From Deinococcales bacterium (GTDB taxonomy: Bacteria > Deinococcota > Deinococci > Deinococcales > JAAFIG01), in contig JAYWGM010000101.1 of the NCBI GenBank assembly GCA_043778225.1, positions 1 through 64,000 on the forward strand: 64,000 bases of DNA, in the 5' to 3' direction. The translations under genes were made by a program, and so were the position numbers. Below the pieces are notes generated by a model. It ran no database searches. It was not told the DNA's origin and saw nothing but the letters and a program-made list of their open reading frames with translations. Below are positions 26,242 through 30,793 of this stretch, piece after piece (position 1 is the first letter of the stretch; the number at the start of each line of letters is the position of its first letter).

Positions 26242-26910
26242 ATGCGGCTACTGCTGATTGAAGATGACCAAGAATTGGCGACGCTGCTGCTTGAAGGACT
26301 GTCCAAAGATGGTTTTATGGTCGAACACACCGCCAATGCCACCCAAGGTTTTGCCCTTGGCAGCCTCGAGACCTTTGCTGTGATTGTCTTAGATGCCACG
26401 CTGCCCGAAGGGCTGGATGCCGGTTTTTTACTTGCCCAGCGCTTGCGCCAAGCGGGTTTAGACACCCCAATTTTATTTTTGACGGCTCGAGCCGATATGA
26501 CTTCTAAATTGCGTGGCTTAGAGTTGGGTGGCGATGATTACCTAGCCAAGCCTTTTGATTTCCGCGAATTACGGGCTCGCTTGCGTTCCTTGGTGCGCCG
26601 TTCGGGTGGGCGTTCGAGCAACTTCTTAAAATTGCCGTTTGATTTTGCAATCAATCTCGAGACCAGACAAGTACTTTTGGGGCAGCAACCGATTCATCTG
26701 ACCCCAAGGGAATATGGACTGCTCGAGTATTTAGCACTAAACACGGGCAGAATTTTTAGCCGCGACGATTTAATCGAACGCATTTGGTCTGGGGACTCGA
26801 GCGTCACTTCTAAAATTGTGGATGTTTATATCTCGAGTCTGCGCCGAAAACTGCATAATAATATCGTGGAAACGGTGCGTGGACGTGGCTACCGCTTGGG
26901 GGCAGAATGA
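26242..26910 (+). CDS. OmpR-family response regulator
   Basis: LLIEDD, VLD, GGDDYLAKPF receiver; C-terminal wHTH ending ETVRGRGYRL. Confidence 0.93.
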   Translation: MRLLLIEDDQELATLLLEGLSKDGFMVEHTANATQGFALGSLETFAVIVLDATLPEGLDAGFLLAQRLRQAGLDTPILFLTARADMTSKLRGLELGGDDYLAKPFDFRELRARLRSLVRRSGGRSSNFLKLPFDFAINLETRQVLLGQQPIHLTPREYGLLEYLALNTGRIFSRDDLIERIWSGDSSVTSKIVDVYISSLRRKLHNNIVETVRGRGYRLGAE

Positions 26911-28226
26911 GTCTGCGCTGGCGTTGAACCCTACTTTATACCGCCCTGATTGTGGTGATTGGTTTGGTGATTGGCACGGCGGTATTCTTGACAGTGCAGG
27001 CTGGTTTGTACCAAGTGCTTGACCGTTGGTTGTGGCAAGCCGCCCAAGATTTTGCTCGCCCATACAAATCTAAAAACGACGATAAGCCGCTTCCATCCAG
27101 AGGTCAAAATGGCAAAGCCGCCGACGAGGCTTTTTTTACGGTTTTTACCAAGGCTTCTGCTGCCAGTCAATATCTGGACTCGAGTCCAGTGATACCCGTT
27201 TTTGACCAAGGTATCCGCACCATTGCTGGCTATCGAGTCGCCATGCTCCAAGCCAACAACGGCTACTGGGTGCAAGCGGCTCGGCTCGAGACCGATACTC
27301 AAAACACGCTCGGGTCGGTGCAGCGCTTATTGCTTTGGGGAATTCCGATTTTAACTTTGGTCGGTTTGGGGTCTGGTTATGTGCTGGTTGGACGCGCTTT
27401 TAGACCGATAGATGCCGTCTCGGCAATGGCAAAACGAATTGCGCTTTCTGGGGAAGCCAAAGAACGTGTACCCGTGCCACGCGGACAAGATGAAATGGTG
27501 CGCTTGACTTCGACCGTCAATGCAATGCTCGAGCGTTTAGAACTGAGTTTGCAGCACGAACGAGCTTTTGCCTTGGCAGCCGCCCACGAGTTACGCACCC
27601 CTTTAACCAAGCTGCTGGCGCGAATTGAATTAACTTTAGAACAGCCACGCAGCCAAATCGAATACCAAAAAGCCCTGACCACACTCGAGAAATCGGCAAG
27701 CGCGATGAAGCGTTTGGTGCTGCACTTGCTGTCTTTTGCCGAGCGCCAAGCGGCTCAAAAAAGTCCGCTTGACTTAGCCGACCTTGCTTTAGAAATCTGT
27801 GAAGCGGCTTCTGAAACCTTACAAGAAAAAAAGCAGCACCTCGAGTTGGATTTATCCAGCGCTCCAATGCTTGGCGACCCTGAAGCCCTGCGTCTAGCGA
27901 TTGGCAATGTCCTTAAAAACGCGATGCTTCATACCCCAATTGGCTCGAGGATTTGGGTTGGTACAGGGCAAACACCAGACTGTACTTGGCTCGAGGTTGC
28001 CGATGATGGCTTGGGAATACAAGAAACCGAACTCGAGCGTCTGCGCCGCCCATTTCAGCGTGGGCTGGGGTTACAAAATATCGAGGGTTCGGGTTTGGGC
28101 TTGGCATTGGTGGACAGCATTGTTAAGCAACATTCTGGCAGCCTCGAGCCAACTCGAGCCGAGCAAGGCGGCTTATTGGTGCGGCTTATTTTTAATAAAA
28201 AACCGATACCCGAATCTATTATTTGA
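26907..28226 (+). pseudogene. HAMP sensor histidine kinase interrupted by an in-frame TGA at codon 7 (or shortened form starting at GTG 26952)
   Basis: ATG 26907 coupled to the RR stop reads MSLRWR*TLLYTALIVVIG; downstream AAHELRTPL H-box, NVLKNA, DDGLG and GSGLGL boxes are intact. Confidence 0.7.
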
Positions 28227-28240
28227 TGCTAGAATAAACC

Positions 28241-28540
28241 ATGAACACCGTTAAGCCAGAGCAGTTTCGTGGTGTAGCGCGTACTTTACGCGCCCATTAT
28301 GGCTTGCGCTACCTGATGCTGGTGCTGCTCGAGACCAAAAAGCAGGGTTTACTCGAGTGCTTATTGGTGCTGAACGGCGAAGTCAATACGGTGCGCGAAA
28401 TTCTGCGGGTCGAACCAGTTGCACGGCTGCACTCGAGTCTTCAAGTCGAACTGGCAATTTTCCCAATTTCAAAAAAAGACTGGGACGATGCACTTGAACC
28501 CGAAATTTGGGAAGCCCATTGGACTGGCACACAACTCTAA
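28241..28540 (+). CDS. Hypothetical protein, possibly a degenerate minimal nucleotidyltransferase fold
   Basis: TAGAAT 5 nt before ATG; 99 aa; fold call is weak. Confidence 0.55.
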   Translation: MNTVKPEQFRGVARTLRAHYGLRYLMLVLLETKKQGLLECLLVLNGEVNTVREILRVEPVARLHSSLQVELAIFPISKKDWDDALEPEIWEAHWTGTQL

Positions 28541-28558
28541 ATCATGTATACTGCGCCC

Positions 28559-28606
28559 ATGAAGTTTTTAGCGTTGTGTTGTTGCCCTCGAGTTCGAGTG
28601 GCGTAG
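28559..28606 (+). CDS. Leaderless Cys-rich leader peptide MKFLALCCCPRVRVA (putative cysS attenuator peptide)
   Basis: TATACT (28547-28552), 6 nt, ATG; TGT TGT TGC at 28577-28585; TAG at 28604-28606. Confidence 0.82.
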   Translation: MKFLALCCCPRVRVA

Positions 28607-28625
28607 TTGTGGTTTGAATCGCGTC

Positions 28626-28655
28626 CGCTCGAGTGTTTGTTCTCGAGCGTTTTTT
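28626..28655 (+). terminator. Attenuator terminator in the cysS leader
   Basis: CGCTCGAG-TGTTTGTT-CTCGAGCG followed by TTTTTT. Confidence 0.8.
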
Positions 28656-28682
28656 ATTTGGGAATTCCCAAAAAGAGGTCTT

Positions 28683-30131
28683 ATGATTACTGTTTTTAAT
28701 ACGTTAAGCCGCAGCAAAGAAGTTTTTGTGCCAAGTAGCCCAACCCATATTGGAATGTACCTTTGCGGTCCAACCGTCTATTCCGAGTCGCACCTTGGGC
28801 ATGGGCGTACTGGGGTTTCGTTTGATGTCATTCGGCGCTGGTTTACTTACCGTGGCTTTGCGGTGCGTTTTGTCTCTAACGTCACCGATGTCGGGCATAT
28901 CACTTCCGAAACCGACGATGACGGCGTAGACCGAATCGGGCAACGCGCTAAACTCGAGCGCGTTGAGCCAATGGAAATTGCCGACAAATATATGTGGGGT
29001 TATTTTCAAGATCTTGAGGCATTGGGGGTGCAAAAACCAAGCATCACCCCAAGGGCAACGGGTCATATTTTGGAGCAAATCGAAATGGTGCAGCGCTTAA
29101 TCGAGAACGGTCATGCTTATGAGCAGGATGGCAGTGTCTACTTTCGGGTGCGAAGTTTTGCCAAGTACGGACAACTGAGCGGTAAAAAAATAGATGACCT
29201 CGAGCATGGCACACGCGAAGGCGTGCGCGAGGACAAAGAAGACCCGCTCGATTTTGCCTTGTGGAAATTTGCCGAACCCGAACACATCATGCGCTGGAAT
29301 TCGCCGTGGGGCGAAGGCTTTCCCGGTTGGCACATCGAATGCTCGGCAATGGCACTCAAATACCTTGGACAAGGCTTTGATATTCACGCTGGCGGTCTAG
29401 ATTTACAATTCCCACACCACGAAGCCGAAATTGCCCAAGCCGAAGGGGCTGGCTACACCTTTGCCAAGTATTGGCTGCATGGCAATATGCTAACCATTGG
29501 CGGTGAAAAAATGAGCAAGTCCAAAGGCAACTTTATCACCCTTGCTGATTTTTACGCCACCAAAGCTGAACCGATGGTGCTGCGCCTTGCCTATATCCAA
29601 AGTCATTACCGCAGCATTGCCGAAATTGGTGATGAAACGATCGAAGGCGCAAAAACAGCTTTATCAAAACTGCGCGAAGTCAAACGCGAACTCGAGCGGC
29701 GTATCCCCGAAGCAGTGGCTGGCACTACTTTACTGCTCGAGAATGCCCTACAAAAAGCCACCACCGAATTTGAAGCTGCGCTGGACGATGATTTCAACAC
29801 CCCCAAAGGTTTAGCGGCGGTGTTTGACCTGACGAGGGAGGTCAACACAGCACTGACCTCTGGCGCTGGAAAAACCAGCCTCGAGAATGCTCTGAATTTC
29901 TATAACACCTTTGTCGGTGGTGTGCTTGGTTTGTACCACACGGCTCAGAACTCGGCTCGAGATGATGCCCAGTTGCTCGAGGGCTTAATGCAGATTGCGA
30001 TTGAAGCCCGTGGGGTTTACCGTCAAAACCGCGATTTTAGCCGCTCGGATGGCTTGCGCGACCGCCTCAAAAGCCTAGGCGTAACGCTCGAGGATACGGC
30101 GGTTGGCACACGCTGGAAACTCGAGACATGA
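28683..30131 (+). CDS. cysS: Cysteine--tRNA ligase
   Basis: [42 protein letters not shown] before ATG at 28683. Confidence 0.97.
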
Positions 30132-30793
30132 TTCAAGAAATTGCAGCCCAAATGGTTCAAATACAGGCAGGTAAGATCATCTTGAAGAACGAAAGAAGCC
30201 ACTTTCGTTGGATCGTACCAGTGCAGCCGTTTGCCATAAGTCAATTCGTCGTCACCCAAGAGCAGTACCAACTTTTTGCTCGAGATTTGGTTATCCAAGA
30301 ACAGGACAGTAAAAAGCCAGTTGTGGATGTTTCATGGCTTTCGGCAATTGCTTTTTGCGATTTTCTATCCGAAAAGGCTGGTTTAACAAGATGTTATTCA
30401 TGGGATTCGACTGGTCTAGTTTTATGCGACTGGACAGCCAATGGATACCGTTTACCCTCAGAAGCTGAATGGGAATTTGCTTGTAGGGCTGGCAGCACCG
30501 AGGTCAGGTACGGTGAGTTAAATGAGATTGGTTGGTATGAAGAAAACGCCGAAGCACAATTGCATCCAGTAGGCGCAAAAAAACCAAATGCGTTAGGGCT
30601 TTACGATACGATTGGCAACGTCTGGGAATGGTGCTGGGATGTTTTCGATGCCAAGGTTTACGGCGATTATCGGGTTTTTCGAGGCGGTGGTTGGAGCGAC
30701 CCTGCCCGCAGTTGCCGAGCTTCATGCCGCCGCAAAAGCCATCCAACTTTTTGTGTGGATGACCTTGGGTTTAGGTTAGCACAAACGATTTAA
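30128..30793 (+). CDS. Formylglycine-generating enzyme (FGE-sulfatase/SUMF1) family protein
   Basis: GYRLPSEAEWEFACRAG, PNALGLYDTIGNVWEWC, RGGGW, LGFRLA. Confidence 0.88.
   Translation: MIQEIAAQMVQIQAGKIILKNERSHFRWIVPVQPFAISQFVVTQEQYQLFARDLVIQEQDSKKPVVDVSWLSAIAFCDFLSEKAGLTRCYSWDSTGLVLCDWTANGYRLPSEAEWEFACRAGSTEVRYGELNEIGWYEENAEAQLHPVGAKKPNALGLYDTIGNVWEWCWDVFDAKVYGDYRVFRGGGWSDPARSCRASCRRKSHPTFCVDDLGFRLAQTI

Follow-up and report, generated by a model that had tools for sequence, protein, structure and literature searches.

The cysteine--tRNA ligase gene cysS of a Deinococcales bacterium is very probably controlled by a ribosome-mediated transcription attenuator, in which a leader peptide encoded on a leaderless messenger RNA (mRNA) would sense charged transfer RNA (tRNA)-Cys and report it through an intrinsic terminator. 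The gene lies in a 64,000-nucleotide (nt) stretch, referred to here as the window (positions 1 to 64,000 of JAYWGM010000101.1, assembly GCA_043778225.1), which is contig C101 of a 4.03-Mb assembly in 107 contigs with a G+C content of 48.7% (G000). The sequence elements of such a switch are present upstream of the gene, they are conserved together with cysS, and alternative folds are predicted for them.

The leader is compact, with 97 nt separating the predicted +1 position from the end of the U-tract, and all of its elements lie on the forward strand. It begins with a short open reading frame (sORF) of the leaderless type, MKFLALCCCPRVRVA including the stop, at 28559-28606. The sORF has 15 codons and reads ATG AAG TTT TTA GCG TTG TGT TGT TGC CCT CGA GTT CGA GTG GCG TAG, from the ATG at 28559-61 to the stop at 28604-06. 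Three tandem Cys codons, TGT TGT TGC (28577-28585), form the putative sensor. A −10 box, TATACT (28547-28552), starts 12 nt 5′ of the ATG, leaving 6 nt between them, and is kept as TATACT or TATAAT in the family alignment. Further upstream, a −35-like hexamer, CTGGCA (28524-28529), is a consensus match only and lies within the 3′ end of an upstream 99-codon ORF; an independent pattern scan scores CTGGCA-17-TATACT as a promoter-like site with 9/12 consensus matches. Inspection of the sequence 5′ of the sORF revealed no Shine-Dalgarno element, and the transcription start site (TSS) is predicted to be the A at 28559. The first-pass annotation, drawn from the letters of the window, had described this −10 box, start codon, 15-codon frame and Cys run, and each of them is found where it had been placed.

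Downstream of the Cys codons the leader can be divided into four pairing segments. Segment 1, GCCCUCG (28584-28590), is the 5′ half of a local hairpin in both the minimum-energy and the centroid folds and would be masked by a ribosome stalled on the Cys codons. In the minimum-energy fold this hairpin, just past the Cys codons, pairs 28584-90 with 28595-602, and its presence gives the locus all four segments of a classical attenuator. Segment 2, UUCGAGUGGCGU (28593-28604, with the core GAGUGG at 28596-601), is the predicted partner of either segment 1 or segment 3. A weak spacer hairpin of five pairs, two of them G-U, occupies 28609-28622 between the stop codon and the terminator, and its sequence is not conserved. 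Segment 3, CCGCUCGAG (28625-28633), was identified by pattern scan and folding as both the 5′ arm of the terminator and the 3′ strand of the antiterminator, whereas segment 4, CUCGAGCG (28642-28649; pattern scan), is the terminator 3′ arm and is followed by the T6 tract at 28650-28655. The predicted terminator hairpin, CGCTCGAG (28626-33)-N8-CTCGAGCG (28642-49)-T6, has 8 bp, 6 of them G-C, and a calculated energy of −14.3 kcal/mol. The annotation had located this terminator at 28626-55 correctly, but the gap it gave between the T-run and the cysS ATG, 28 nt, is in fact 27 nt. The complementarity it had noted between TCGAGTGG (28594-601) and CCGCTCGA (28625-32), with one G-U pair and overlapping the left arm of the terminator, is likewise present. 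The regulated gene follows with a Shine-Dalgarno sequence, AGAGG (28674-28678), 4 nt 5′ of its ATG, and encodes a cysteine--tRNA ligase (CysRS) of 482 residues (28683-30131; NCBIfam TIGR00435, 452 bits, E = 2.8e-135, above cutoff).

We infer that the sORF is translated, that transcription terminates behind it and that cysS thereby responds to cysteine, in the following way. Transcription would begin at the A of the start codon (28559) or immediately beside it, 7 nt past TATACT, and a 70S ribosome would load directly on the 5′-AUG. When Cys-tRNA(Cys) is scarce, the ribosome would halt with the first (or second) Cys codon, 28577 or 28580, in its A site, where it would cover segment 1 (28584-90) and leave segment 2 (28593-604) free. 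Segment 2 could then pair with the segment 3 side (28621-33), the terminator would not form, and RNA polymerase would read into cysS to yield more CysRS. With plentiful Cys-tRNA, the ribosome would reach the stop codon (28604-06) and cover segment 2, so that the 3:4 terminator forms and transcription ends in the U-tract at 28650-55. A leader without a ribosome would also terminate, as the 1:2 and 3:4 hairpins would both form; the role of segment 1 would be that of an anti-antiterminator, pairing with segment 2.

Constrained folding is in agreement with this mechanism. To represent the nascent leader, the terminator 3′ arm was treated as not yet made and everything up to 12 nt past the A-site codon was blocked. 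With the ribosome on the first Cys codon, the downstream segment pairs with the terminator 5′ arm, here at −18.1 kcal/mol; across the 18 family leaders folded, the energy ranges from −11.8 to −20.3 kcal/mol. With the ribosome at the stop codon, just −0.5 to −5.5 kcal/mol of pairing is left in the family leaders. In the full leader the minimum-energy structure switches with ribosome position: a ribosome at the first Cys codon, or at the second if the edge is set at +12, gives the antiterminator (−21.4 kcal/mol), and one at the third Cys codon (−20.4 kcal/mol) or at the stop codon (−14.3 kcal/mol) gives the terminator. The ribosome-free leader folds into the terminator plus the 1:2 hairpin (−28.1 kcal/mol). 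Compared with 300 dinucleotide shuffles, the antiterminator of the window has z = −3.6.

The leader travels with its gene. Up to 400 nt 5′ of cysS was taken from 41 genomes of the order (30 + 11 loci), with cysS matches in 41/41, and these sequences were searched for TANNNT, a gap of 5-9 nt, ATG or GTG, and a Cys-containing ORF no longer than 30 codons whose end lies 5′ of cysS. The genomes span five families (f1-f5). The CysRS encoded here is 88-92% identical to that of six genomes in its genus, 66-72% identical to those from the remaining genera of its family, and 49-59% identical to those of the four further families; the placement in Deinococcota that the first-pass annotation assumed holds. 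The pattern precedes cysS in 35/41 genomes: in 19/19 of the organism's own family (f1), in 6/6 of the G+C-rich, Deinococcus-like f3 (genus g7), in 5/6 of f2, in 4/5 of f4 and in 1/5 of f5, where one further case is ambiguous because the ORF runs into cysS (L029). Recurrence of the Cys codons in relatives, on which the first-pass annotation had staked its proposal, is thus borne out in the whole family and in most of the order. Every leader of the order lies within 212 nt of cysS. In G007 the DNA upstream is unrelated, and the leader and terminator still stand beside the gene.

What is conserved in these sORFs is the cysteine. There are two to five Cys codons per leader in the family and one to five across the order, and they are kept through synonymous change, as TGT TGT TGC here and TGC TGC TGT in G002. 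Outside the Cys codons the peptides are unlike one another, and their N-terminal residues vary freely (KFLAL, KSLLS, KPSAL, NALLL and others). Within the family, seven genus genomes end in ...CCCPRVRVA and the eighth has MVFVLCCCRPHVRAA, and the remaining forms include RCCAACCCPRAA, ACAACRPPRA, ...HGCCYRL with its variants, and ...CCCCP; the g7 peptides include MTTLCCLR, MKTVCCSPLR and MPALCCLPMR.

This distribution bears on whether the Cys-rich peptide is itself functional, for example as a metal- or redox-active micropeptide, or whether the ~97-nt leader RNA acts in trans, with no regulation of cysS in either case. The identity of CCCPRVRVA in seven of the eight genus genomes would fit a selected peptide, and attenuator-derived trans-acting small RNAs and peptides are described in the accessible part of work on Sinorhizobium (PMC7968998). 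The codons of this C terminus, however, are also the RNA pairing segments, so that conservation of the nucleotides explains it, and the N terminus is free to vary. Outside the genus only Cys is common to the peptides (...HGCCYRL, ...CCCCP, MTTLCCLR, MRPARRCRR). We consider such a function very unlikely.

The RNA elements are conserved together with the codons. The core of segment 2, GAGYGG, is invariant or nearly so in 19/19 family leaders, and in all 19 its start lies 16-22 nt past the first Cys codon and between −8 and +2 nt relative to the stop. This spacing is the geometry that the attenuator model needs. The annotation had proposed that a ribosome stalled at the Cys codons frees this segment and that one at the stop codon covers it; in silico, both the constrained folds and the 19/19 conserved geometry agree with this proposal. 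In the 19-sequence family alignment 91% of the cells of the terminator helix are paired (slid controls 19-49%), as are 86% of those of the antiterminator helix (slid controls 13-47%). A hairpin followed by a U-run is found in 18/19 family leaders and in 6/6 g7 leaders.

Several results weigh against the attenuator as drawn. Moving the ribosome edge by 2 nt leaves the two conformers only ~1 kcal/mol apart, and the antiterminator reaches p ≤ 0.05 relative to shuffled sequences in just 9/24 leaders, and in 0/6 of those of g7. When 28592-28620 was replaced by 3,000 random 29-mers from the genome, 4.9% of them paired at least as well, and among the 423 replacements carrying CTCGAG, a word of which the leader stems are built, the proportion was 17%. 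Against this genomic background, the alternative pairing in this one window alone is weak evidence. The covarying stems for which an alignment had been suggested were also not found: in the 19-sequence alignment, double-sided changes are seen in no pair of the terminator and in one pair of the antiterminator, and neither helix exceeds column shuffles. The lack of covariation is explained by the near invariance of the pairing segments, and it is conservation, not compensatory change, that supports the two predicted helices. Finally, some relatives in f2 and f4 have the Cys sORF but no clear terminator of the hairpin-plus-U type, suggesting that the readout may not be termination everywhere. The argument is therefore carried by the conserved Cys codons, the terminator and their spacing, and not by the energy of one helix.

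The f2 and f4 leaders lend some weight to a different readout, in which the Cys sORF senses Cys-tRNA but acts on translation or mRNA stability, and the hairpin-T6 serves mainly as terminator of the upstream two-component operon. Mycobacterial polycysteine leaderless sORFs unmask a ribosome-binding site, according to the accessible part of that report (bioRxiv 10.1101/834739), and the genes upstream on the same strand (26242-28540) do need a terminator. We nevertheless regard this explanation as improbable. The cysS Shine-Dalgarno (28674-78) lies 19 nt past the U-tract, and in none of the folds is it paired with the sORF region. The overlap between the terminator and the alternative helix is exactly that of classical attenuators, the hairpin and U-run are retained in nearly all family and all g7 leaders, and in G007 leader and terminator accompany cysS where the upstream DNA differs.

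The word CTCGAG occurs 24,877 times in the 4.03 Mb, compared with 931 expected, a 27-fold excess amounting to ~1 copy per 162 nt. Three copies are in the leader, at 28587-92, 28628-33 and 28642-47. With such a density, a terminator, a third copy and a short ORF might have come together by chance without any sensing function; the genome has 446 CTCGAG triplets within 61 nt and 161 close pairs adjoining T-runs, and the alternative pairing is just a 5% tail of the genomic background. Random placement, however, would give ~1,378 such triplets, and gaps of 9-22 nt number 1,133 where 1,958 are expected, with spacings that show a 3-nt periodicity. Since clusters are rarer than random, the three copies within 61 nt are not a by-product of density. 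Nor does density account for three Cys codons in a row within a 15-codon ORF that starts 6 nt past a −10 box and precedes the gene that charges tRNA-Cys. Cys makes up 0.68% of the 823,804 residues in the long ORFs of the genome, so that the probability of at least three Cys in 14 residues is ~1e-4 for the count alone. The design is also kept in 35/41 genomes, including lineages whose stems lack CTCGAG (g7: GACCGCGCC...GGCGCGGTC). As an outgroup we took 250 nt upstream of the 74 cysS loci of other phyla among the 80 matches listed in a profile search with the CysRS alignment, the other six being from Deinococcota; of the 74 loci, 4/74 have any leaderless-type Cys sORF and 1/74 has adjacent Cys. 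Chance assembly is already disfavoured by the conservation, and we hold it to be extremely unlikely.

In the family the switch is written almost wholly in this word, which is exact in segments 1, 3 and 4 and present as the variant TTCGAG in segment 2. Since one copy of a palindrome can pair with any other, CTCGAG supplies ready-made, mutually exclusive helices. One possible reading, which we put forward tentatively, is that this HIP1-like word serves as raw material for terminators and riboregulators, and that the Cys sensor of cysS is ancient in the order and has been rebuilt in each lineage. Under this reading the stems would be of CTCGAG in the family and G+C-rich in Deinococcus, and the Thermus- and Truepera-like leaders would have just one CGA-UGU dicodon and would often (f2, f4) lack a clear terminator of the hairpin-plus-U type. 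A literature search found no description of CTCGAG as an iterated palindrome, and combining 'Deinococc' with 'highly iterated palindrome' returned cyanobacterial work only. Other palindromes are nearly absent from the genome (GACGTC, AGGCCT and GGGCCC, 1 copy each; GGCGCC, 3; CGGCCG, 7; CTTAAG, 8).

Single-Cys leaders in the other families share a further feature, in that the Cys codon UGU directly follows the rare Arg codon CGA in 12/13 (L025-L028, L030, L035, L036, L038, L039, L052, L054 and L096); the thirteenth, L037, has CGG. The CGA-UGU pair may act as a sensitised sensor dicodon or have a structural role. In Thermus-like genomes the UGU is in the loop of GCCGAUGUCGGC (CGCCGAUGUCGGCG). 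Several single-Cys leaders have no clear U-tract terminator, whereas the Meiothermus-like ones (...PRC-stop) have one. Five genomes lack the pattern. In four of these, L031-L033 (genus g9) and L040, a TATAAT or TACCCT box stands 7 nt 5′ of the cysS ATG itself, so that cysS is apparently leaderless and the attenuator apparently lost; in the fifth, L034, neither a leader nor such a box was seen 5′ of cysS.

A leaderless start for the sORF is consistent with the rest of the genome. Among 2,096 long ORFs, TANNNT is found at −12 of the first ATG in 246 and at −13 in 142 (388 together), compared with ~36 at each of the other offsets, and GGAG/GAGG forms a separate peak at −12 to −8. Leaderless genes therefore look common in this genome. 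Six sequencing runs were found to contain all or part of the stretch, none of them listed as RNA. The TATACT of the leader ORF begins at −12, the modal offset genome-wide, and on this basis the leader transcript is predicted to start at the ATG at 28559.

Other leaders of this kind appear in the same genome. A broad unfiltered scan (438 matches) was too permissive and was set aside. Its filtered version required a −10 box separated by 6-8 nt from a start codon, an ORF no longer than 32 codons, a good hairpin ending in a T-run, and a downstream ORF of 120 codons or more, and gave 29 candidates. These include a trpE leader, MKPNGTNWWWQLG (WWW), with a terminator (C32:27976-29726, − strand); an asd leader, MNFTNTTTTI (TTTT; C52:32847-34031, + strand); a leuS leader, MIRSGLLLAGALLD (LLL..LL; C91:1179-3802, − strand); a proS leader, MILVLHPQPPTT... 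(MILVLHPQPPTTKCLILAVGGGA; C1:5876-7800, + strand); and a pheS leader, MEVTLSLFTSFA (C91:14295-15479, + strand). Tandem codons that match the regulated gene, the mark of a Deinococcus-type leader, are thus found for cysS (CCC) and likewise for trpE, asd and leuS. Judged from these sequences, the organism employs leaderless leader peptides as a general device. No second Cys leader was found in the genome, either among leaderless-like sORFs with TGYTGYTGY (15 rows) or among CC and C.C sORFs with terminator-like hairpins (17 rows). A 'Cys ribulon' was considered here and rejected, the annotated downstream genes being EnvC-like, an FtsH fragment, a threonine aldolase and one unknown, none of them sulfur-related.

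Attenuators of this general design are familiar from Proteobacteria, where trpL, hisL and pheL/pheM of pheST are the classical examples, and in Firmicutes the usual control of cysS is a T-box leader. A scan of 27500-29500 with Rfam at E ≤ 10 gave no match to the T-box covariance model, the only two hits being chance matches to small nucleolar RNA models. With the classical attenuators the leader shares four segments with predicted 1:2, 2:3 and 3:4 pairings, regulatory codons just 5′ of segment 1 and a predicted intrinsic terminator, and with pheST it would share the control of an aminoacyl-tRNA synthetase through codons for its own amino acid; it differs in sensing cysteine and in being very compact.

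The arrangement, of which the first-pass annotation did not know for cysS in Deinococcota, is already described there. In Deinococcus deserti the TSS of cysS was mapped on the AUG of a 10-residue leader peptide with two Cys (de Groot et al. 2014, Genome Biol Evol 6:932, PMC4007540), and the accessible part of that paper, which also summarises the classical leader-peptide mechanism, proposes transcription attenuation as the control of cysS. The two cases share the phylum, the gene, a −10 motif just 5′ of a 5′-AUG (there with the TSS at the start codon) and a tandem-Cys short peptide. One g7 genome has an sORF of the D. deserti kind, with 10 residues and two Cys (MKTVCCSPLR). D. deserti belongs, however, to another family (CysRS 57-59% identical), with 10 codons and two Cys there and 15 codons and three Cys here, and the leader sequences are dissimilar. 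Here the stems are made from the family's CTCGAG word and a four-segment switch can be drawn, whereas the start, mapped in D. deserti, is predicted from sequence. Searching for more recent studies of leader peptides in Deinococcus or Thermus gave nothing relevant past the 2014 paper.

Two further systems are related. The uORFC-8-2 motif of Rhodobacterales, with 145 examples, is found solely before cysS and combines tandem Cys codons with a U-run (Brewer et al. 2021, RNA Biol 18:2417, PMC8632094). According to the accessible part of that report, it likewise has an upstream ORF (uORF) with two tandem Cys codons and stems ending in a U-run, and ribosome-mediated attenuation was proposed for it; it differs in belonging to Alphaproteobacteria and in having its Cys codons at positions 14-15 inside the first stem, and it is not described there as leaderless; it is also not one of the Rfam models matched at 27500-29500. 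The polycysteine leaderless sORFs of mycobacteria, the 'Cys ribulon', were shown experimentally to respond to cysteine (Canestrari et al., bioRxiv 10.1101/834739). As far as the accessible part of that preprint goes, they too are leaderless with a run of Cys codons, at which stalling remodels the downstream RNA. There a ribosome-binding site is unmasked, whereas here the predicted readout is an intrinsic terminator and the target is cysS; in place of unmasking without a terminator, a canonical terminator follows the sORF.

The remaining features surround the leader. Between the U-tract and the cysS Shine-Dalgarno is a perfect 16-nt palindrome, TTTGGGAATTCCCAAA (28657-28672), which has a single copy in the 4.03-Mb genome and is absent from the other seven genomes of the genus; it may have been inserted recently or serve as an operator-like site. 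The same strand carries, upstream, a response-regulator-like ORF (26242-26910) and a histidine-kinase-like ORF (26952-28226), both named by eye from their translations, followed by a 99-residue ORF (28241-28540, + strand) that has no NCBIfam match and is conserved in 6/7 of the genus loci searched (L001-L007). Downstream, a gene for a 221-residue protein (30128-30793, + strand) overlaps the cysS stop codon (ATGA) and shows weak, below-cutoff matches to the sulfatase-modifying-factor/EgtB/PvdO domain family. This FGE/EgtB-like gene was considered as a conserved operon partner and rejected, being near cysS in only 3/30 loci.

The kind of mechanism proposed here is already known, and no new mechanism class is opened. 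What is new is how widely the leader is distributed in the order, an explicit model with four segments and a switch written in the family's own iterated palindrome. The window offers a clean, compact and fully drawable predicted case of ribosomal cysteine sensing on a leaderless mRNA, and the ~125 nt before cysS in these metagenome-assembled genomes should be annotated with an sORF and an attenuator feature. The cysS leader is no curiosity of D. deserti: it is found in most of the order and in the majority of genomes in four of the five families, with readouts that may differ. The group thus forms a natural series for asking how many sensor codons are needed, and how initiation on a leaderless mRNA is coordinated in time with RNA polymerase.

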